Of a stretch of 64,000 nucleotides of DNA, positions 28,085 through 63,070 are shown one piece after another. The translations under genes were made by a program, and so were the position numbers. The DNA comes from Mobula hypostoma (taxonomy: Eukaryota): contig NC_086097.1 in assembly GCF_963921235.1 (NCBI RefSeq), positions 115,074,001 through 115,138,000 on the forward strand. Reading direction: 5' to 3'. A model generated the notes under the pieces. That model saw only the letters and a list, made by a program, of their open reading frames with translations. It made no database searches and had not been told where the DNA came from. The first letter of the stretch is position 1; every line of letters starts with the position of its first letter.

Positions 28085-31000
28085 CTCCAGACACCCTTCT
28101 TGCTGATATGGGATGGCTCCTATGAAAGTCCTTAATGAGAGAGGGATCCAGGATATCTCAAGCAGGAACCCAATACCTCTCTTCGGGGCCATAGCCCTGC
28201 CAATCAATGAGGTATTGTAGTCCACGACCTCTGCGTCGAACATCCAGTAATCGGCGCACAGTGGACGTCTCCGAGCAATCGATGAGATGGGGAGGGGGAG
28301 GGGGCTTGGGGGTGGGACAGAGGGGGCTGCAGACAAAGGGCTTAATCCTTGAAACATGGAATGTTGGATGGATTCTGCAAAGGGTAGGAGGTAGTTTTAG
28401 ATGTACCACCGAAGGGCTGATCACCTTGGTGATGAGGAAAGGTCCAATGTAGCGTGGCGCCAGCTTGCAGGAGTCCACCTTCAAGGGGACGTCACGAGAA
28501 AATAACCACACCTTCTGACCCTGGCGGTAACGGGGGGCCTCAATGTGGTGACGGCCTGCTTGCTGCTTCATTCTGGCTATAGATTGAAGCAGCATCTTTC
28601 GGGCTCGTCTCCAGGTCCATGAACACCACTGGACAAATGCTTCGGCTGAGGGAACGCCCACTTCTTCCTCCTGAGACGCGAATAAGGGGAGTTGATAGCC
28701 AAGACAGCACTGGTATGGTGATAAACCTGATGAAGTAGAAGGCAAAGGATTAATGGTGTACTCGACCCAGAGAAGTTGCTGACTCCAAGAGGATGATTCC
28801 TGAGACGTCACACAATGGAGCATCACCTCCATCTACTGATTAGCCCGCTCAGTCTGGCCATTACACTGTGGATGAATCCCAGATGAGAGGTTAACCCTGA
28901 TCCCGAGTAGTTTGCAAAAGGCCCTCCAAAAGTGGAAGGTAAATTGTGAACCTCTATCAGATACCACTTCAACGGGGAGACCATGAATGTGGAAAACATA
29001 CTGAATCACCTGGTTGGCAGTCTTCTTGGCAGAGGGCAGCTTGGGAAGGGGAACTAAGTGGACCAATTTGGAAAAACGATCCACTATGGTAAGAACGGTA
29101 GTGTTACCGTCAGATGGAGGGAGTCTGGTGACCAAGTCCAGTGCAATATGTGACCAGGGCCTTCTAGGAACAGGCAGGGGTTGCAGGAGACCAGCTGGTG
29201 GCTGGCTGGAGGTCTTGTTCTGTGCACAGACTGGGCAGGCAGAAATGAAGCTCTCAACATCCTTCTTCAGGGATGGCCACCAAAATCTTCAACTGATGAA
29301 AGCCGATGTGCGTCTGATGCCAGGGTGACTTGCCAGTCTGGACGTGTGTCCCCACTGGAGAACCTGGGAGCGGACAGACTTGGGAACATACAATAGATTA
29401 GCAGGGTAGGCACTAGGACCACACTCACCCTGCTGGGCAGACTGGACCACAGATTCAATCTCCCACTGTGTTGCGGCAACCAGACATTGCTTGGGGAGAA
29501 TGGTCGTAACCTTGGGCACCTCGTCGGTTGTTGGAAACTGCCTGGAGAGCGCGTCAGGCTTGCCATTCTTAGAGCCAGGACCATAGGCCAGGGTGAATCT
29601 AAAACAGGCAAGAAACAGGGACCACCGAGCCTAGTGGGAGTTGAGGCGTTTGGCTGAACGGATATATTCCAGGTTCTTGTGATCCGTCCAGACTAGAAAA
29701 GGAGTAGTCGTTCCCTCAAGCCAATGCCGCCATTCCTCAAAAGCAAGTTTAACAGCCAATAGCTCTCGATTGCCGATGTCATAGTTGCGTTCTGTGGGTG
29801 AAAATTTGTGGGAAAAAAAGGCGCACGGGTGTAGCTTGTCGTCCTCTGCTGAACGCTGTGACAGTATAGCCCCTACTCCTACATCAGAGGTGTCAGTCTC
29901 TACAATAAACTACCTTGTAGGATCGGGCTGAAGGAGGATAGGTGCAGTGGTGAAACGAGTCTTTACATCAGAAAAGGCTTTCTCAGCTGCTGGATTCCAG
30001 GCGAACTTCGACTTGGAGGAGGTTAGAGCAGTCAGCGGGACGGCCAGGATGCTGAAATTTCGAATGAATCGGCGATAGAAGTTGGCAAACCCAAGAAAGT
30101 GTTGGACATCTTGTCGAGAGGCGGGTTGTGGCCACTCCTCTACCACCTTGATCTTCTGAGGGTCCATCTGGATTCCTCCAGCGCTGATCACATATCCCAG
30201 AAACGAAGTTGAACTCCGGTGAAATTCACACTTTTCTGCCTTCATAAATAACTGATTTTCCAAGAGTCGTTGGAGCACCCGACGGACGTGCTGGATGTGT
30301 TCAGAGAGGGACCTAGAAAATATCAGAATGTCATCTAAGTACACAAATACAAATTGATTCAACATGTCTCTGAGGACATCATTCACCAGGGACTGGAACA
30401 CAGCAGGACCATTAGAAAGTCCGAAAGGCATTACAGATATTTGTAGTGCCCAGATGGCTTATTGAACGCAGTCTTCCACTCACCCCCCTCTCTTATGCAG
30501 ACCAGATGGTAAGCGTTGCGGAGGTCGAGCTTGGAGAAGATAGAAGCACCCTGGAGCAATTCAAATGCAGATGACATAAGAGGAAGAGGATAACGCTTCT
30601 TAATGGTGACCTCATTGAGACCGCTATAGTCCACTCAAGGACACAGGTACCTGTCCTTCTTAGCTACAAAGAAGAACCCTGCGCCTGTGGGGAGGAAGAG
30701 GGACGGATAATTCTTGCTGCCAAGGCCTCCTGGATATATTCGTCCATCGCTTCCCTTTCAGGTGGAGACAGGGAATACAGATGACCCCTCGGTGGCGAGG
30801 TTCCCAGAAGGAGATCTATAGCACAGTCATAGGGGCCATGTGGGGGTAAGGTGGTGGCCTGAGTTTTGCCGAATAGCAGCTTGAGGTCCAGATATTCAGG
30901 GGGTACAGAGGACAGATCGGGAAACTCTTCTGTAGGCAGAAGAACCGGACTTTGAGTAGCATGAGCAACGTGCAGACAATGATTTAGGCAGAAAGGACTC

Positions 31001-31400
31001 TAGCTTAACACTCTGTTATTAGACCAATCAATGTGTGGACCGTGCTGAGCTAGCCATGGGTGGCCTAACACAACATCAGCTTTGGGGGAATCTATTACAT
31101 GGAAAGCAATGCTCTCCTGGTGATTGCCAGAAATGAGGAGACTCACCGGAGCTGTAGAGTGGGTAACCATGGCAAGTTTCACTCCGGTTAAGCTGCTGGC
31201 CCCCAGGGGTTGCTTCAGACGGGAGAGTTGCATCCCAAGATTGGCCGGAAAACTGGAACTGATAAAATTTCCCTCAGCCCCAGAGTTGATAAAAACTGAA
31301 ACGGCGCGTCTCCTCCCTTCAGCCGGTATAAAAGCAGGTAGCAGGGTTCGAGTGACGGAGAACTGGGGGAAGGAAGTACTGCTCACCCGTAGTCCCCTCT
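28085..31400 (-). pseudogene. pol: Sushi-type pol (protease, RT, RNaseH, integrase, chromodomain), disrupted
   Basis: VFINSGAEGNF (PR), [16 protein letters not shown] and YLDD (RT), VVSDRGSQF and PQCNGQTER (IN), LAPRYIGPF (GPY/F module), [17 protein letters not shown] (chromodomain). It contains multiple stops and frameshifts. Confidence 0.92.
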
Positions 31401-32387
31401 TTACAAGCGAGCATTGGCTTTTACGGGACAGGTAGATACATAGTGACCAGCCTGACCACAATACAGACAGGAGTTGGTACTGAGTCTCCTCCTTCTTTCC
31501 GAAGGAGACAGACGGGTACGATCAATCTGCATGAGTTCCGTTGGGCTGGATGGGGGTGACTGAGGACTCAGGGAAGGAGATCTGGGTGCTGGCTGGGAAG
31601 AGGTCAGACGCCCCGTGGTGGTTCTTTGTGACCCCCGGACATCACGCTCCTGCTGACGCTGTTTTACGCGGCTGTCAATCTTAATGGCCAAATCGAACAG
31701 CTCTTGGAAGCCAGCAGGCAGGTCACGGGTGGCTAGTTCATCCTTAACCTCCTCGCTAAGTGCATAGAGGAACACGTCCGATTGGGCCACTGAATTCCAG
31801 TTGCTAGTGGCGACTAGTGTGCGGAACTGAATGGCGTAGTCCAAAACAGAACGGTTACCCTGACGAACTCGCAACATCTCCCTTGCTGCCTCTCGCCCCT
31901 GCTGGGAACGGTCAAAGACTCTTCTCATCTCCTCACAAAAGTCCTTAAACGTGTGGCATAAAGGGGCTCTGCTGTCCCACACAGCCGTACCCCACTCTCT
32001 TGCTCTTCCTGACAGCAGCGTGATAACACAAGCAATACCGGATCGATCTGTGGGAAAGGTAGTGGGCTGCAGCTCAAAAATCAGCGAGCATTGAGACAGG
32101 AAGGATCTGCAGGTGCCTGGTTCACCATTGTAAAGTTCAGGTGGAGGTAAACGGAGCTCTTGGGCTGGTTGGGTTGGAGTCTGTGGGACTGATGGTGCAG
32201 CAAGACAAGACGGGTTAGAGCTCAGTGCCAGCTGAATCTGCTGTAGCTGGGAGGCCATGCTGGTCAGAGTGGCAGAGAAGGCTTCCATTGACTGATTGAT
32301 AGAGGCGAACTGCGTTTCATGTCTCCCTAAAAACACACCCTGTCGGGAGAGGGCCTCACGCACCTGGCTGGGGTCCGCTGAGTCCAT
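31401..32387 (-). CDS. gag: Sushi-type Gag with CCHC zinc knuckle
   Basis: MDSADP..PELYNGEPGTCRSFLSQC..ITLLSGRAREWGTA..CLYCGQAGHYVSTC. The ATG at 32387 lies just inside the 5' LTR/PBS. Confidence 0.9.
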   Translation of the reverse strand: MDSADPSQVREALSRQGVFLGRHETQFASINQSMEAFSATLTSMASQLQQIQLALSSNPSCLAAPSVPQTPTQPAQELRLPPPELYNGEPGTCRSFLSQCSLIFELQPTTFPTDRSGIACVITLLSGRAREWGTAVWDSRAPLCHTFKDFCEEMRRVFDRSQQGREAAREMLRVRQGNRSVLDYAIQFRTLVATSNWNSVAQSDVFLYALSEEVKDELATRDLPAGFQELFDLAIKIDSRVKQRQQERDVRGSQRTTTGRLTSSQPAPRSPSLSPQSPPSSPTELMQIDRTRLSPSERRRRLSTNSCLYCGQAGHYVSTCPVKANARL

Positions 32388-33289
32388 CTTGGCCAGTTCG
32401 TTCTGTTGGGTTTCGGTGGGACTCAAGTGCAGACCAACGAAGACTTTTTCACCAGGATTTATTAGGGAGCACAAAGGCAACAGTCTTTCAAAAACAGAAG
32501 GCAGGCACGAATCCGAAATGGCAGGCAGAGGTCTTACCAAGAAAGGCAGTCAGGCGAGGGCAGACAATCCAGAGCGCACAATCAAAAATCAGGTCCAAGA
32601 ACGGGCAAAATCCAAAACACAGAATCAGGCAAAATTGGTTGGCAGAAGTCGCAACGACAGGCTAGAACGACACAGATCAGAACTGGGATGAACTGGCAGA
32701 GAACGCTAGTCAAGGCGGGGTTTAAATGGACAGGGTAATGAGTGAAAATTAGGAACAGGTGAGTGCAAATGAGGAGACAAGCAGGTAATTGGAGGAAGTC
32801 CAAAAAGGAAAGGGGCTGGGCCAGAACCCACATGGCCAAGTGAAAGAAAACAGAAATTAAAGACTGTCGTGATCCAGAGCTACCAGCAGAGGCCCTTCGA
32901 CCCAGTGTTCAGGCCGGATCTTTAACAGCATCAGCCTCAGCTCATGATATGTATTAGCAGATTGCACTTATGATGTGGGCAGGAAGCAAAACATCCAGGG
33001 TTATGTATAATAGAGAACATGCACACTCTACACCAACAGAGCTGTGGGTCAGGATCAAACCTGTGTCCTCAGAGATGTGAGGCAACAGTGCTGACAACCA
33101 TCAGTGATCAGTCCGTTTCTAAAATATGCTGTGGCAATTCGCTAATTTTGCTGAGCCAATAAGAAAGGAATAAAAGACAAGTGTAATAAATTTCATGATT
33201 TTTGAAATAGCTGCTCATTTTCTGATATCTAGTAAATGAATAAATCATAGGAAGAGTCGATATTCTTACTTCGTAAATACGTCAGTATG

Positions 33290-33800: not shown

Positions 33801-34194
33801 GTAGATATAAACTTGTGAGAATATGACAGACAAGAATTTAATTATCTTTATTTTCTTTTGTTCTTCTCACTAGTCTTACACTGCACTGCACTTATTTCAG
33901 TCAATCTTTTTATTGAGAGAAACTTTAATGAGAGTAGTAACAAGTTATGAACTTAAAATGAATAATGATGTACACTCTTGTTTTAAGGCAGATTTCTATG
34001 ACATTAACAATTGTTTCTTCAGAGGGTGTTAAAAATATCTCAAATACTATTTCCATCTTGAGGATGCTTTTCATGATAAAGAATGTGTTTGGTAATATTG
34101 AGAAGCATAAACTTCCCAAATGTGGCTATGAATGCTCACTGGCTAGTGAATACTAGCCTCAATTAGATTTACATTGGTAAACTACAATGACATG

Positions 34195-34392
34195 TGTACC
34201 ATATAGCCTACAGTATAATAAGGGACTACTTTATGTTTTAGTAACATATCGTTGAATGCACTATTAGGCGCGTATTGATCTGTACTTGTGTGCCGAGTTC
34301 GTTTTCTGCCAGTAAAGAACCATGAACCTTAGCTCTCTTCTCCAGCATTTTTATTAATAGCATTGCTGTGTAACCAGGCCACATACACAACA
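34195..34392 (+). repeat. 5' LTR of the SUDS3-carrying element
   Basis: Direct repeat of 37273-37522 with TG..CA ends. Confidence 0.92.
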
Positions 34393-34783
34393 AATTGGCA
34401 ATGAGGATAATGAACCTACATCGTATCGGAACGCCGTGTTTTAATTGATAACGACACTTGGAAGAAGAGCGCAAGGAACAAGCCAAGGAGCGGGAGAAGG
34501 AGGCAGAGCGAGGCAGTGAGTCTGAAAGGAAGCGGGAGCACAGCCAGGGTCAGGAATGTCGGGAGACTAAGATACAAATTCGGAGCCGCAGCACGTCTAG
34601 CCAAGACCACAGCCGGCGCTGACCCCAAGGGACTGAGGGTCTGCCTGCCTCAAAAGGGAGATAAAAAGGAGCGACACACACACAATCTAGACGGAGTGTG
34701 CTCGTGGCGCTAGCAAAAAGGACACAGAGTCAAAAAGGAAAATAGGGGGAAAGCGGGGCTAAATTAACATAACAAAGAAGGCG

Positions 34784-35731
34784 ATGATTGGAACCATTAC
34801 AGCATTTGATAGTGGCATTGAAGACTGGGCAACTTACATTGAAAGAGTGGAGTTATATTGTGAGGCTAGCGGTGTTAAGGATGAAAAGAAAGCCAGCGCC
34901 TTACTCAGTATTTTGGGAGCGAAAACATACGGGCTGCTATGGAGCTTGTTAACCCCTGAAAAGCCAGCTGACAAAACATTCATGCAAATAGCAGACACTC
35001 TCCAACAGTATTTAAACCCCAAACCACTGGTCATTGCTGAAAGATTTAAATTTCACAGACGGAATCAGAGCAAAAATGAAAGTATTTCTGAATATTGTGC
35101 TGAATTGCGCAAATTATCAGAACATTGTCAATTTGGAGCTGGTCTATCGGACACATTGAAGGACAGGTTAGTGTGTGGCATGCACTGTGAAACCACACAG
35201 AAGAAGCTCCTGGGTGAAAAAGACCTTACACTAGAGAAGGCGCTGAACATTGCAATATCAACGGAAACAGCAGCACAGGGTGCTTCAGAAATACAACAAA
35301 AATCTCTGGAATATGCTATGAATAAAATGTCACTGAACAGAAATGAAGGAAAGAAATGTTACCGTTGTGGGAACACGTCACATGACCCGGAGGGTTGTTG
35401 GTTTAAATACAAAGAATGCAGAAACTGTGGCAAACAGGGCCACACTGGCAGATTATGCAAAACTAGTAAACAGCCGAAAAAGGACAAAATACAGAGAAAC
35501 AAGAAACCCTGGAAAGGAAAACACAACAATGTACACAAAATGGAAAAAAGCAGTTCTGATGAAAACGACTCAGACGAAAGTGAATTGTCTTGTCTGCAAC
35601 TTCACAGCATGAAAGAGACAGATGATCGAAGAGTAATAAGAATCACTCCACAAGTGGCAGGTGTGAGACTGAAAATGGAGTTGAACACAGGCTCAGCTTT
35701 AACAGTGATCCTTGTACACAACTACAAATGA
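34784..35731 (+). CDS. gag: Mag-like Gag (two CCHC-type knuckles) running into the protease N-terminus
   Basis: MIGTITAFDSGIEDWATYIERVELY..PKPLVIAERFKFHRRNQ..DRLVCG..CYRCGNTSHDPEGC..CRNCGKQGHTGRLC..LKMELNTGSALTVI. Confidence 0.9.
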   Translation: MIGTITAFDSGIEDWATYIERVELYCEASGVKDEKKASALLSILGAKTYGLLWSLLTPEKPADKTFMQIADTLQQYLNPKPLVIAERFKFHRRNQSKNESISEYCAELRKLSEHCQFGAGLSDTLKDRLVCGMHCETTQKKLLGEKDLTLEKALNIAISTETAAQGASEIQQKSLEYAMNKMSLNRNEGKKCYRCGNTSHDPEGCWFKYKECRNCGKQGHTGRLCKTSKQPKKDKIQRNKKPWKGKHNNVHKMEKSSSDENDSDESELSCLQLHSMKETDDRRVIRITPQVAGVRLKMELNTGSALTVILVHNYK

Positions 35732-35950
35732 CTGTTTTCTCACATACCTCTGAAACGAACTAAACTACTGCTAAAGACTTATACCGGACATAAATTGCAT
35801 CCCAAAGGTAAAATTAAAGTGACAGTGACCTACAGAGTCAAAACACAGCAGCTAAACCTCTATGTACTGAAAAATGGAGGACCACCATTGCTAGGATGAG
35901 AATAGCTCAGGAAAATCCAGTTGGATTGGCACACCATCAAGGCACTAGAT
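35640..35950 (+). pseudogene. Retropepsin protease remnant, in frame with gag and SUDS3
   Basis: MELNTGSALTVI (DTG changed to NTG)..[28 protein letters not shown], where LLG*E*L corresponds to the canonical LLGRDWL. Confidence 0.85.
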
Positions 35951-35983
35951 GTGTCGACAAAGGAGGGAAGCTCGACGGGGAAA

Positions 35984-36908
35984 ATGTCCGCAGCTCTCCT
36001 CTCACCCACTGTCGACTATTACAACGATGAGAAGGAGCAAGACAGCGTCAACAATGAGGACGAATGCAGTATCCGTGGCCGCAACTCGGATGAAGATACA
36101 GAGGACGCAAGGGAGATAGATATTGCCAATAAGCAGGATGATGAAGACTACCTGGAAGCAAAAGAGCAGATGTGCCAGGAGAAATTGACATCTTTCAAAA
36201 GACAGCTACAGCAGTTACAGGAAGGCACTTTGCAGGAGTATCAGAAAAGGATGAAGAAACTAGACCAACAATACAAGGAAAGAATACGAAATGCAGAGCT
36301 TTTACTGCAACTGGAGACAGAACAAGTGGAAAGGAATTATATTAAAGAGAAGAAAGCAGCAGTGAAGGAATTTGAAGATAAAAAGATTGAGTTAGAAGAA
36401 GAGAAAAAGATGATTGCGAATGAGAGGCTAACAATGGAACTCACAGGAGATTCTATGGAGGTAAAGCCAATAATGACTAGGAAACTAAGGAGGAGACCTA
36501 ATGACCCTGTTCCAATTACAGACAAAAGATGAAAACCTGCACTTGCGCAGTTATCTTACTTGTTAACAGATGAACAGATAACGGAAGATCTGCGAACTCT
36601 CAACAAGCTTAAATCTCCGAAAAGACCAGAATCTCCATCTTCTCCTGAGCATCTTCCCAGCACTCCTGCTGAATCACCAGAACAAAGATATGAAGCACGA
36701 ATAGAAGATGGAAAGTTATATTACAATAAGAGATGGTATCATAAAGGTCAGGCTATCTATTTGGAATCTAAGGAGAATACGAAGATTGGCTGTGTAATTA
36801 GCTCAGTTGGAACAAATAAGATATGGGTAAGGAAGACAAGTGATAACACAAAGATGCATATATCTCTAGGATAGCTGCTTCATTATACGGAGGCGATCTG
36901 CTGCCTAG
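35984..36908 (+). pseudogene. SUDS3: Intronless retrocopy of SUDS3 (Sin3 histone deacetylase corepressor complex component SDS3)
   Basis: I recognise [96 protein letters not shown] and the C-terminal FIIRRRSAA* as vertebrate SDS3. The copy runs from the start Met to the stop with no introns. It has stops at 36530 and 36872 and a small frameshifting deletion at about 36878. Confidence 0.96.
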
Positions 36909-37272
36909 AACTCTTAGCAAGCTGGAGGCGCACATCTTCTTAACTCCCTATGCTCAGAGGTCAACTTTACATGACATTTATATGGAAATCTGTATTAAAA
37001 CAAACAAGTTTATTGACAGACGTTATCCGGAGAGGCAGAGTAGACCCCCCCCCGCCCCCCGCAGAGACTTGAGTTATAAATGGGTCTTAGATCAAAAGGA
37101 AAAAAAGGCTTGTTATAATTTGATATTATTATGTTACTTTGTTATAATCTGATATTTTTAAGTTACTAAGTAAACAAATGGTAGGCATTTGTATGTTATT
37201 TGCATATTTGTTTAGCATAGTGCCCCAGTAAAACAAAACAGTTGATACACTATTAAAATAAAAGGGGAGGAG

Positions 37273-37522
37273 CGTACCATATAGGCTACAGTATTATAAG
37301 GGACTACTTTATACTGACTACTTAAAGGGACTACTTTATGTTTTAGTAACTCACCATTGAATGCACTTTTAGGTGCATATTGAGCATGAGCTATTAGGTG
37401 TGTATTGATCTGTACGTGTGTGCTGGGTTCGGTTTCTCCCAGTAAAGACCAATGAACCTTAGCACCCATCTCCAGCATTTTTATTAATAGCATTGTTGTG
37501 TAACCAGGCCACATACTCAACA
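37273..37522 (+). repeat. 3' LTR of the SUDS3-carrying element
   Basis: Follows the PPT, begins cgtacc (T>C relative to the 5' LTR), ends caaca, and is followed by the TSD ACATG. Confidence 0.92.
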
Positions 37523-37854
37523 ACATGTATCTGTAATAACCTTCATTATTTTCCCCCTCCCCCTTTCCTTTTCTTCCATTCCCCATTCTGGCTCTCCTCT
37601 TACTCTTCTCTTCTCCTCATCTGCCTATCATCTCCCCCTGGTGCCTCTCCTCCTTCTCTTTCACCCACGGTCTACTCTCTTCTCCTATCAGATTCCATCT
37701 TCTTCAGCCCTTTACTGCTGCCACCTATCACCTCCCAGCTTCTCACTTCATTCCCCACCCACCCCTGCCACCCACCAAACTACAGAGAGGGAGACAGGAT
37801 ATGTCCAAGCTCATTTGTATGTAGCCATTGATATTTTTTCACTTTACTTACAGT

Positions 37855-41593: not shown

Positions 41594-41750
41594 TGAAATG
41601 TACTTGCCAGGTTGCTGTCACCAGAGTTGAGCTGGTGGTGTAATCTGAGTTCCAAGCTCAGGGTCTTCCTTCTGCGATGGTCATTCCCCAAGTTCAAGAT
41701 TCAAGTTCATTTATTACATGCACACTGAAACATACAGTGAAATGTGTCAT

Positions 41751-44342
41751 CGCAAGATCCTACGTCTACGGACTCCAGAGCCTGCCGGCCCCGACGCTAG
41801 CAGGCATGAACTTCAGATTGCGGCCCCTGCCATTGATCTCGGCGGCTCCAACACCTCAGGGCATATTCAAAACCCGGACTCCAGCAACGACCATGGACAC
41901 ATTCACAGCGATTGCGCAACCACCAACTGCGACTCCAACCTTGAACTCCAGGCCGGGTCTTTATGTGCTGCTGTTGTGACTCCCGTCTCCCCTTCCCCCA
42001 CCACCACTCTGCAACCCCGTCTCCGTCAGATCCCACTGTCAACTCCTGGGCCCTCAGAGGCTCCATCTTCCTCTCACCCCAACCCTCCCCTTTCCATTGA
42101 CACCCCCAGCCTCCCCCCTCCCCCCTCTGATCCCAGCTCTCATCCATGCCGGGTCTTTACCATCCCCTCCGACCTTCAACTGTCGGAGGCAGAACGCTCT
42201 GTTCTCAGTAAGGGCCTCACCTTTGTCCCCCTTCGCCCACACCTCAGCGAGTTCCGTGTTCGCCACGATGCGGAACTTTTCTTCCACCGTCTCCGTCTCC
42301 GAGCCTACTTCTTCGGCAAGGACTCTTCCACCCCCACCGATGACCCCTTCTCCCATCTTCAACCCTCCTCTTCTTCATGGACACCTCGCTCTGATCTTCT
42401 GCCTGCTTTGGATCTCTTTATTGCCAACTGCCGACGGGACATCAACCGTCTCGACTTTACCGCACCTTGTCCCCATTCCAACCTCACTCCTTCGGAACGC
42501 TCTGCTCTCCACTCCCTCTGCACTAATCCTAACCTTATTATTAAACCCACCGATAAGAGGGGTGCTGTTGTAGTCTGGCGTACTGACCTCTACCTTGCCG
42601 AGGCACAGCGACAACTCACGGATACCTCCTCTTATTTACCCCTCGATCGTGACCCCATTAAGGAGCACCAGGCCATTGTCTCCCACACCATCACTGACTT
42701 TATCCGCTCAGGGGATCTCCCATCCACTGCTACCAACCTTATAGTTCCCACAGCCCGCACTCCCCGTTTCTACCTCCTACCCAAGATCCACAAACCTGCC
42801 TGTCCTGGCCGACCTATTGTCTCAGCTTGCTCCTGCCCCACCGAACTCATTTCTGCATACCTCGACACTGTTTTATCACCCCTTGTTCAATCCCTTCCGA
42901 CCTATGTTCGTGACACTTCTCACGCTCTTAAACTTTTCGATGATTTTAAGTTCCCTGGCCCCCACCGCTTTATTTTCACCATGGATGTCCAGTCCTTATA
43001 TACTTCCATCCCCCATCAGGAAGGTCTCAAAGCTCTACGCTTCTTTTTGGATTCCAGACCTAATCAGTTCCCCTCTAACACCACTCTGCTCTGTCTAGCA
43101 GAATTAGTCCTTACTCTTAATAATTTCTCCTTTGGCTCCTCCCACTTCCTCCAAACTAAAGGTGTAGCTATGAGCACCCGTATGGGTCCTAGCTATGCCT
43201 GCCTTTTTGTTGGGTTTGTGGAACAATCTATGTTCCGTGCCTATTCTGGTATCTGTCCCCCACTTTTCCTTCGCTACATCGACGACTGCATTGGCGCTGC
43301 TTCTTGCACGCATGCAGAACTCGTTGACTTTATTAACTTTGCCTCCAACTTTCACCCTGCCCTCAAGTTTACCTGGTCCATTTCTGACACCTCCCTCCCC
43401 TTTCTAGATCTTTCTGTCTCTGTCTCTGGAGACAGCTTATCCACTCATGTCTACTATAAGCCTACTGACTCTCACAGCTATCTGGACTATTCCTCTTCTC
43501 ACCCTGTCTCTTGCAAAAACGCCATCCCCTTCTCGCAATTCCTCCGTCTCCGCTGCATCTGCTCTCAGGATGAGGCTTTTCATTCTAGGACGAGGGAGAT
43601 GTCTTCCTTTTTTAAAGAAAGGGGCTTCCCTTCCTCCACTATCAACTCTGCTCTTAAACGCATCTCCCCCATTTCACGTACATCTGCTCTCACTCCATCC
43701 TCCCGCCACCCCACTAGGAATAGGGTTCCCCTGGTCCTCACCTACCACCCCACCAGCCTCCGGGTCCAACATATTATTCTCCGTAACTTCCGCCATCTCC
43801 AACGGGATCCCACCACTAAGCACATCTTTCCCTCCCCCCCTCTCTCTGCATTCCGCAGGGATCGCTCCCTACACAACTCCCTTGTCCATTCGTCCCCCCC
43901 ATCCCTCCCCACTGATCTCCCTCCTGGCACTTATCCGTGTAAACGGAACAAGTGCTACACATGCCCTTACACTTCCTCCCTTACCACCATTCAGGGCCCC
44001 GAATAGTCCTTCTTGGTGAGGCAACACTTCACCTGTGAGTCGACTGGTGTGATATACTGCGTCCGGTGCTCCCGATGTGGCCTTTTATATATTGGCGAGA
44101 CCCGACGCAGACTGGGAGACTGCTTTGCTGAACATCTACGCTCTGTCCGCCAGAGAAAGCAGGATCTCCCAGTGGCCACACATTTTAATTCCACATCCCA
44201 TTCCCATTCTGACATGTCTATCCATGGCCTCCTCTACTGTAAAGATGAAGCCACACTCAGGTTGGAGGAACAACACCTTATATTCCGTCTGGGTAGCCTC
44301 CAACCTGATGGCATGAACATCGACTTCTCTAACTTCCGCTAG
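41751..44342 (+). pseudogene. PLE RT-GIY-YIG polyprotein with a single in-frame stop at 44004-44006
   Basis: ORFs 41718-44006 and 44013-44342 are in the same frame. QGPE*SF corresponds to QGPKQSF in the copy at about 40300. Confidence 0.9.
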
Positions 44343-60887: not shown

Positions 60888-61549
60888 ATAAAAGGAGCAG
60901 CAACCATTGTGAAAGTGAGCCTGTGTAGGAGTCGTAGCTGAGGCTTTGGCGAGGAGGCAAAAGTGAGTAACAGGTTAGAATCAGGTAAGGTTTTTTTTCC
61001 CTGTTGATCTGAGTCCTTGGATTTAACGGTAGACAAAATGGGAGTTAGGGCAGTGGAACGCTCCTCCTACAAGATGTGGAAAGTCAAGGAACTTTCTGGT
61101 CTCCCTGATGACTTACATCTGAGGGAAGTGCACCCAGCTGCAACTCCTGACAGACTCAGTCAAAGAACTGAAGATGCTGGTGGATGTGCTCAGAACCATC
61201 TAGAAAGCTGAGGAGATCACAGATGAGAGTTTTAGTGAGGTGGTCACACCTCATGTGCTCGCTAAAGATAAATGGGTGACCACCAAGAGCAGTAAGGTCT
61301 AAACACAAGGCCTTTTTACTTATATTGAGAAAGAGGATAACTAAGGAGAGGCTAAGTGGACTCAAGGATAAAGGATGGAATTTGTGCTTGGATTCAGACC
61401 AAGATAGTTCTGGGTCTTCTGAAAGGCATTAACATGGATAAGACCCCAGAGCCTGATGCATATATCCCAGAATATTAAAAGAACTACAGAAAAGGAGATT
61501 AGAATTTTAAATGCACAATATGTCCCTGAATAATGAAAAAAGCCAAAAA

Positions 61550-63070
61550 TGTTACCAATGTGGCAAATCCTCTCATGATGCAAATGACAGTTGGTTCAAG
61601 GAAAAAGTGTGCTCAATGTGTCACCGACAAGGTCACACAGAGAGAGTGTGCAAGGCAGACAAAAAGCACAACTGAGTGAAAATACAAAACTAAGCAAATG
61701 CATGAAGTTACCAAATGTAAAACAGAATCAGACAACGTAGAGTATGAAAAAGGTGAACTGTCATGCCTAGGACTGCATAGTATTACTGAAGCAGATCACA
61801 ATATAACATGGATCACAATAGATGTGTCCAGTGTAAAACTGAAAATGGAGCTGGATACACGGTCAGTTTTGTCTATAATTCCAGAGGCTGACTAAAACTG
61901 ATTGCTTTCTAAGTTACCATTACAGTGATGCTAGGGAGTGTCTCCCAAAGGCAAACTGAAAGAGAATGTGACGTATGGAGGCCAAACATAGCAGTAAGAT
62001 ATTTATCTATTGAAAAGTGGAGGGCCAGCACATTTCAGGCGTAAATGGTTGAGAAAAATCCAACTGGACTGGCACTCAATCAAAGCTCTCAGTGTGACAT
62101 CAACAGACCAAATAGTAGCACTAACCAGATACTGGCAGAGCTGCTTACTGCTAATGAGAAGTTGTTAGAGAAAGGAATAGATAAACAGATTGAAGACTTG
62201 CCCAAAAAGCTGTTTGGGATGCCAAAATGTTTGAAATGCACCTCCACAGGCACCGTTGCACCCATGGGAGTGACTGACTTTACCATGGCAACGAGAACAT
62301 ATTGACTTTGCCAGGCCATTCATGGACTCCATGTTCCTGATTGCTGTGGATGCTCAGTCAAAGTGGCCGGAGGCTATATAATGACATCAACCACTCAGCA
62401 AAGACTGGCTCTGCCCTGAGGAGTATCTTCACCAGAAAAGGTTTACCAGAACAAATTGTGAGTGACAATGGACCACAATACACATCAGAAGTATTCCGAC
62501 TGTTCATGAAGAAAAATGGCATCAGACATTTCAAGCCAGCTCCTCACCACCCAGCAGCAAATGGGTTAGCTGAAGGGTTTGTCCAAAAATTCAAGAAGCC
62601 CATTAAAGTGATGGACATGGAGGACATTTCTCTCCAGCACAAGGTGGACAACTTCCTTTTTGTATATTAGAATTCTGTTTATGCGACAACAGATCAAACA
62701 CCTGCAATGCTGTTCTTGAGCAGAAATCTGAGATCTCACATAGACCTTCTGAAACCAGACCTCCAGAGGGAAGTACAGAATAAACAGTTCAGCCAGTTGT
62801 CAAGTGAAGCAGGAACCAATGAACACAGTGAATGTTGGATATCAGACATGGAGACATCATGTGGACCAGATACTGGATGCTCAACCAAAGAATATACCTG
62901 AATCAACTGCATCCAACAATATGGACACATTACAGTCACCAGACTTGCCTCTCAAGAATAATGTCACTGACAGCAACGTGACACCGGAAACTGAGAATGT
63001 TGTCTTAGACAAGATACCTACCAAACCTGATAAACCTAGCTGCAAATATGATTTGGTACACATGTGATTT
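61550..63070 (+). mobile_element. Degenerate Mag-like Gypsy internal fragment (gag knuckles, protease, integrase; RT deleted)
   Basis: CHRQGHTERVC, ELSCLGLHS..KLKMELDTRSVLSII, IQLDWHSIKAL, and GLPEQIVSDNGPQY..APHHPAANGLAE (integrase). I did not identify LTRs. Confidence 0.85.

Follow-up and report, generated by a model that had tools for sequence, protein, structure and literature searches.

The window analyzed here is a stretch of 64,000 nucleotides of the Mobula hypostoma genome (NC_086097.1, positions 115,074,001 to 115,138,000), and it contains a 3.3 kb non-autonomous Ty3/Gypsy element in which the region for reverse transcriptase (RT), RNase H, and integrase has been replaced by a spliced mRNA of the host gene SUDS3. 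All parts of the element lie on the forward strand. It is bounded by two identical 5-bp target-site duplications (34190..34194 and 37523..37527), inside which a 5' long terminal repeat (LTR) of 198 bp with TG...CA ends (34195..34392) forms a direct repeat with a 3' LTR of 250 bp (37273..37522) that has two short internal duplications and a decayed first base. The primer-binding site (34396..34408) is complementary, with two mismatches, to the 3' end of tRNA-Ser(GCT); matching tRNA-Ser(gct) genes are present in the genome, and no tRNA gene was found within the window. A polypurine tract (37254..37272) is read directly upstream of the 3' LTR. The two LTRs differ by 10.3% mismatch and the median over copies is 8.3% (47/81 loci), which at slow elasmobranch rates would presumably correspond to tens of millions of years.

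Between the LTRs, Gag (34784 to approximately 35635) comprises a capsid-like region and two CCHC zinc knuckles (around 35360-35458) and is 58 to 64% identical to intact K02A2.6-like Gag-Pol proteins, with zf-CCHC and PNMA matches that fall below the Pfam cut-off. The aspartic protease and the start of the protease-RT linker follow in the Gag frame (35636..35964), interrupted by stops at 35729, 35897, and 35903. The 5' joint, a putative template-switch point (35965..35971), is a 7-nt microhomology between RT-bearing copies of the element and the host SUDS3 5' untranslated region (UTR). The 22 nt that match this UTR (35962..35983) are read through in frame and free of stops, and they lead into the SUDS3 coding sequence with all 12 exons (35984..36908, stops 36530 and 36872) and about 112 nt of host 3' UTR (36909..37021). 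The 3' joint is again a 7-nt microhomology (37015-37021), at which the element resumes with a remnant of the last pol codons (37015..37079). No env is present: the element is wholly accounted for without one, and the RT-bearing partners match it again from the end of pol onward. Database names call the closest relatives K02A2.6-like, and we take them to be the Mag clade of Ty3/Gypsy elements.

The window holds further elements. At 61481-62911 lies a second decayed member of the same Gag-Pol kin, with late Gag, protease, and integrase and with RT and RNase H missing, and at 28158-32549 on the minus strand lies a more distant Gypsy-type element (Gag, protease, RT, and integrase, 29 to 34% identity to the intact fish Gag-Pol protein P0124) whose tail we take to be a chromodomain. 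An open frame of 785 codons at 41649-44006, with a nuclease-like tail beyond its stop, is presumably a Penelope-type reverse transcriptase.

The initial annotation had proposed that the open reading frames 34784-35731, 35921-36532, and 36560-36874 share one frame, and translation of 34784-36910 bears this out, recovers the linker it had quoted, and places the frame's stops at 35729, 35897, 35903, 36530, and 36872. Its further statement that no frameshift intervenes holds through codon 697; just beyond, the frame of the final SUDS3 codons is lost through a private 11-nt deletion near 36878. The first 397 codons or so are Gag-protease and align to P0124 residues 1-404 in a single high-scoring segment without frame change (58% identity), the SUDS3 ATG is codon 401, and the SDS3 part has Mobula SDS3 as its best protein match (87% identity). 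On P0124 coordinates the protease domain occupies residues 294-384, the joint falls at about 404, and the RT match begins at 509, so that SDS3 indeed sits past the protease domain and ahead of RT, as had been suggested. P0124 matches the window element at residues 1-404 only, and the element has no RT, RNase H, or integrase of its own.

The host SUDS3 gene (contig C78) has 12 coding exons spread over about 59 kb, and all 11 of its introns are absent from the element. Intron 7, of 3117 nt, is of the AT-AC type (minor spliceosome) and is correctly missing. Copies that retain RT show the order Gag, protease, RT-RNase H-integrase (P0124 domains aligned along L183-L197) and have the LTR, leader, gag, and protease in common with the element at about 82 to 91% identity; they diverge from it at 35971 and rejoin it at 37015-37017, in the last pol codons. 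At both joints host mRNA and RT-bearing copies agree exactly over the 7 nt of microhomology, and the first host-matched position is -21 in 111 of 138 sequences.

An in-frame junction had been credited with a chance of one in three, and this figure understates how unusual the full configuration is. When a single natural RT-bearing copy was compared with the host mRNA (taken as the coding sequence plus a 5' UTR assumed to be 300 nt) for exact matches of at least 7 nt, 150 of 345 candidate microhomologies were in frame and 34 lay in the 5' UTR. Only 5 of the 345 combined a UTR position with an in-frame and open junction, 2 of those 5 in the linker, which corresponds to about 1.4% overall or 15% given a UTR joint. 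This rarity, calculated post hoc for a single event, is the strongest argument for an initial benefit of the fusion.

A junction query of the genome gave 639 first-look candidates, and the 40 that were scored were all 91 to 93% identical except for the window itself. With an SDS3 protein query, 150 of 408 matches were scored; one was a host exon, and the shortened form of SDS3 described below was present in 148 of the 149 others. We analyzed 137 copies besides the window (29 from the junction search and 108 from the protein search), having dropped one duplicate place and left out about 30 listed matches; the protein-search copies had been selected for their similarity to a stretch of 46 SDS3 residues, and this stretch was removed from the 0-fold/4-fold analysis. 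The copies lie on many contigs, have the joint and a 24-nt deletion in common, and in several cases show their own target duplications; the element has transposed secondarily to independent sites. Two Mobula gene models named 'SDS3-like' (P0002 and P0003) show the same 8-residue gap and the same two family-wide replacements as the element, so that annotation has probably taken element copies for genes. In a third model, P0001, extra residues match intron sequence around exons 9-10.

None of the window's five stops is fixed among the other copies, in keeping with their earlier interpretation as decay after insertion: in order along the frame, they are found in 57/118, 0/127, 9/128, 34/131, and 0/89 copies. 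The proposal that the TGA stops arose by CpG deamination fits 35729 and 36530, which lie in CpG-prone columns; the stop at 35897 is not a plain single CpG step, because it is found in no other copy although its column is CpG-prone. Stop 35729, the commonest, is spread over both structural groups of copies (39/77 and 16/37) and the RT-bearing copies (12/29), as recurrent CpG decay predicts. The initial annotation had pointed out that stops upstream of SUDS3 common to all copies would mean that the fusion had gone untranslated while the family amplified; no lesion near fixation was found upstream of SUDS3 in the copies examined. The departure of the window at the protease active-site codon (35684), also singled out for a check, is private, being common to 3 of 120 copies.

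The spacing from the protease to the SUDS3 ATG is constant in 108 of the 126 other copies that cover the region (of 137), and the Gag-protease-SDS3 frame is a family-wide property beyond chance. The window is a lucky copy in this respect, as a frameshifting indel is absent from just 5 of the 66 others that span the region. Starting at the Gag ATG, a single copy of 83 stays open beyond codon 401, the longest frame being 483 codons, and decay is now seen in every copy examined. The active progenitors very probably encoded an open Gag-protease-SDS3 frame, given the constant spacing and the absence of a fixed stop. The polyprotein that had been ascribed to them was in our view probably made, given that the leader and the start of Gag were kept, and this part of the claim is less firm than the open frame. 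Contigs from four sequencing runs that we guess to be RNA cover both sides of the joint, and none among the pieces listed bridges it with 31 letters on each side. No Sds3 Pfam tag was found among the 120 listed of 128 long-protein matches with this Gag, which is weak evidence.

To look for selection on SDS3 while the family spread, we compared non-CpG variants common to at least 9 copies with rare variants. In SDS3 the shared variants comprise 10 nonsynonymous (N) and 2 synonymous (S) changes against 610 N and 186 S among rare ones (P=0.74), and in Gag-protease 26 N and 27 S against 1051 and 312 (P=2e-5), the direct contrast between the shared variants of the two regions giving P=0.051. There is no stop among the 12 shared SDS3 variants, part of which may be recurrent changes and not shared descent. 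The ratio of 0-fold to 4-fold pairwise divergence points the same way: 0.86 (0.71-1.07) for SDS3, with controls at 0.86 and 1.05 (SDS3 read off frame) and 1.10 (an antisense RNF213 insert), and 0.63 (0.51-0.79) for Gag-protease. For the N-terminal 217 SDS3 codons the ratio leans below 1 (0.82, 0.66-1.04), and it was 0.74 (0.59-0.96) in group A before the copy-picking stretch was removed. Neither test gave a signal of purifying selection on SDS3 during spread; both have low power, because the SDS3 cassette is nearly star-shaped and few changes fell on active lineages.

Differences from host SUDS3 that are common to the whole family comprise 10 S and 2 N changes in the coding sequence, and 4 of 134 UTR columns differ as well. 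Most of the synonymous ones could stem from the host's own drift after capture. Polarizing them by the direction of CpG change would give 3 S and 0 N, a favorable result at first sight. In another organism's contigs, however, the counts among the rows listed were 21 versus 23, 4 versus 5, and 8 versus 11, which suggests that several of the synonymous differences are missing there and are host-side changes. Lesion-free SUDS3 cassettes number 4 of 76, versus 2.1 expected. We show no intact domesticated copy among those examined, the window itself having five stops and a frameshift. The initial annotation had regarded the in-frame junction as suggestive of selection and short of proof; with no purifying signal, a selected role of any kind for SDS3 is not supported.

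The constraint on Gag-protease is real, but its signal is common to the RT-bearing helpers by recombination. SDS3-bearing and RT-bearing copies are equally divergent within and between groups, 45 of 54 Gag-protease shared variants also segregate in RT-bearing copies, linkage falls with distance (p=0.001), and an AU test rejects one clade (p=1e-4; 22 of 96 SDS3-bearing versus 18 of 24 RT-bearing well-covered rows). Because the capture happened once and yet the variants are mixed, the 5' half must have been swapped repeatedly with helpers, which would most simply have occurred in co-packaged RNA pairs, and later gene conversion probably also contributed some of the exchange. The Gag-protease signal is not independent evidence for a function of the fusion, and it shows more generally that recombination with helpers can bring signs of purifying selection into the Gag of an element that is itself non-autonomous.

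Five sister pairs of copies have 6 to 11 rare variants in common (N:S 34:8), and L009 and L120 also have a single-base protease deletion in common. We considered such pairs as proof that frameshifted RNA had transposed and rejected this, since ectopic gene conversion fits equally well. The members of four pairs (L112/L119, L074/L097, L005/L021, and L009/L120) lie on the same contig, 0.4 to 2.3 Mb apart. In the comparisons made, their flanks are not similar, and together these features suggest that neighboring copies have undergone ectopic gene conversion.

Taken together, our results lead us to favor, with reasonable confidence, the reading that SDS3 rode as a passenger in a family that encoded the fusion. 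The structure of the cassette, altered several times, is in line with this reading. An in-frame deletion of 24 nt near 36387 takes out host residues 135-142 or thereabouts, inside the solved SDS3 coiled coil (host 80-163), and was scored in 126 of 138 sequences. This 8-residue gap and two family-wide replacements fall at positions at which the named vertebrate orthologues compared have the residues of host SDS3. Copy L032 lacks 6 nt where others lack 24. A second in-frame deletion, of 57 nt near the SDS3 N terminus, is common to 10 copies, and an in-frame insertion of 15 nt in Gag is shared by 7 copies, one of them RT-bearing. In another organism (D), a contig from run X9 skips 57 nt at window 36052-36110, the site of this subfamily deletion (one contig, depth 3.8), hinting that the subfamily with the deletion is older than the split from organism D.

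The largest alteration is an antisense piece of RNF213 mRNA (RING region) in SUDS3, present in 46 of 132 copies (for example L123:3000-3958). It was inserted at the equivalent of window 36627-36657, after SDS3 residue 226-233 or so, and exists in at least two structural forms; 11 copies resume the C-terminal part of SUDS3 within the fetched stretch. In this group the frame ends early, with modes at 19 and 48 codons past 36608. By the SDS3 domain order given in the part of PMC8800102 consulted, the insert drops the capped Tudor domain from the frame and leaves the Sin3-interaction segment (host 195-219) intact.

One alternative is that the frame and not the protein was selected, translation to a late stop having kept the RNA stable or favored its packaging in cis, so that frameshifts were purged while amino acid changes were free. 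The joint is in frame and open, the shared SDS3 variants include no stop, and both shared deletions and the shared Gag insertion are in frame versus 50 of 159 private SDS3 indels, all of which this idea would accommodate. The two deletions, however, each lie between direct repeats of 6 to 7 nt, and pairs of this kind within the SUDS3 coding sequence keep the frame in 54 to 60% of cases (distances up to 100 nt), against which two of two is a weak result. In-frame shared deletions as proof of selection were rejected against this repeat-guided null of 0.54-0.60. Moreover, the RNF213 group ends the frame early and yet makes up more than a third of the copies in which the insert was scored. We regard selection on the frame as unlikely, though the foremost of the alternatives.

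Somewhat less likely again, and a speculative idea at best, is that the LTR retrotransposon kept the coiled coil and Sin3-interaction segment of SDS3 as a selected weapon, which, fused to Gag or released by the protease, would have acted against the Sin3-HDAC complex as a decoy or dominant-negative and relieved the element from silencing. A full coding sequence was captured in frame at the protease-RT boundary, the Sin3-interaction segment is spared by every shared lesion, with the RNF213 insert falling just beyond it, a dominant-negative form would be compatible with a missing Tudor domain or a distorted coiled coil, and the copy number is large, as the first-look candidates indicate. Against this stand the missing purifying signal on SDS3, the location of both family-wide replacements and the 8-residue gap in the solved coiled coil, and the lack of an excess of lesion-free cassettes. 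The second cargo, RNF213, is antisense, so that the lineage evidently carries cargo without protein value, and our literature search gave no support for Sin3-HDAC silencing of these elements in rays. Were the decoy reading true, the element would be a transposon that turned a captured piece of the silencing machinery into a counter-defence and a retrotransposon counterpart of a Gag-oncogene retrovirus. A last alternative, that no fusion protein was made while the family amplified and that masters broken upstream of SUDS3 moved as RNA, could draw on the frequency of stop 35729, which is high among CpG-type frequencies (median 0.21, top 0.47) and some of which may be common by descent, and on the lack of a listed contig bridging the joint, but it is largely refuted and highly improbable, as 61 of 118 copies are without that stop, which is equally common in RT-bearing copies and in both groups, and no other near-fixed lesion lies upstream of SUDS3.

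Under the passenger reading, the family would have arisen in a particle formed by a single-ORF Ty3/Gypsy element, where RT may have switched templates from the protease-RT linker to a co-packaged SUDS3 mRNA, landing 22 nt ahead of the SUDS3 ATG and returning at the end of pol. We infer this switch from the joints, microhomologies, and lost introns that are observed in the copies. The two frames would have been joined through the microhomology by luck, and the product would have retained the LTRs, primer site, leader, Gag, and protease. Hundreds of copies were presumably then made with the RT and integrase of intact relatives, with which the 5' half was exchanged. Active copies are very likely to have had a single open frame from the Gag ATG to the end of SDS3, as the lack of a fixed break indicates, and the Gag-protease-SDS3 protein that was probably made could have co-assembled into particles. 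SDS3 itself would have been a passenger that could be shortened, truncated, or altered without detectable cost. Weighing against this reading are the low power of the tests, the N-terminal ratio leaning below 1, a direct contrast of no more than P=0.051, the excess of synonymous over nonsynonymous family-wide differences, the in-frame state of both large shared deletions, the rarity of a joint like this one, and an RNF213 insert that leaves the Sin3-interaction segment alone.

These observations bear on how the element relates to known systems. It resembles the K02A2.6-like single-ORF Ty3/Gypsy elements of fish (P0121-P0124) in a Gag with two CCHC knuckles followed by a protease, 58 to 64% identical, and differs from them in that SUDS3 replaces RT, RNase H, and integrase. 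Acutely transforming retroviruses carry fusions of Gag to host proteins, such as v-ErbA, v-Myc, and v-Abl. Like them, the element depends on helpers and has a spliced host regulator that replaces pol in frame with gag; unlike them, it is a Ty3/Gypsy element with no env, has kept its protease, and carries a host part in which no selected function is seen.

In the sections consulted of Tan et al. (2016; PMC5131818), LTR-mediated retrocopies of animals are described in which host mRNA takes the place of part of the internal ORF, with a microsimilarity of median 6 bp at both joints, several host genes per element in some cases, and later rounds of transposition as non-autonomous elements. Our element is a member of this kind, alike in intronless mRNA capture and in joint microhomology (7 nt here), and it differs from what those sections describe in that a whole SUDS3 coding sequence lies in frame with Gag-protease in a family of no fewer than 138 examined loci. 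The proposed route of capture corresponds to the double template switch that they set out. According to the part consulted of a review (PMC13317346), maize Bs1 carries pieces of three genes, and both its transcription and its translation are described. The element is similarly a defective LTR element with sequential host mRNA captures (PMC13317346; see also PMC5131818), and unlike Bs1 it holds one gene at full length and has no intact domesticated copy shown. In the portion consulted of a study of cartilaginous fishes (bioRxiv 10.64898/2026.06.26.734816), SUDS3 is a top retrocopy parent and retrocopy abundance is tied to non-LTR elements. That study and ours deal with many intronless copies of one gene in one lineage. 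The SUDS3 copies analyzed here, in contrast, descend from one LTR capture, and their count reflects amplification of the element, which probably explains the rank of SUDS3 in these fishes and probably also the 8-residue gap in some 'SDS3-like' ray gene models. Neither that portion nor the other literature searched, as far as it was consulted, yielded a description of a Gag-protease-SDS3 element. The mechanism of capture is known; a full-length host gene in frame with Gag-protease and multiplied to hundreds of copies in a vertebrate is a rare and well-preserved outcome of it.
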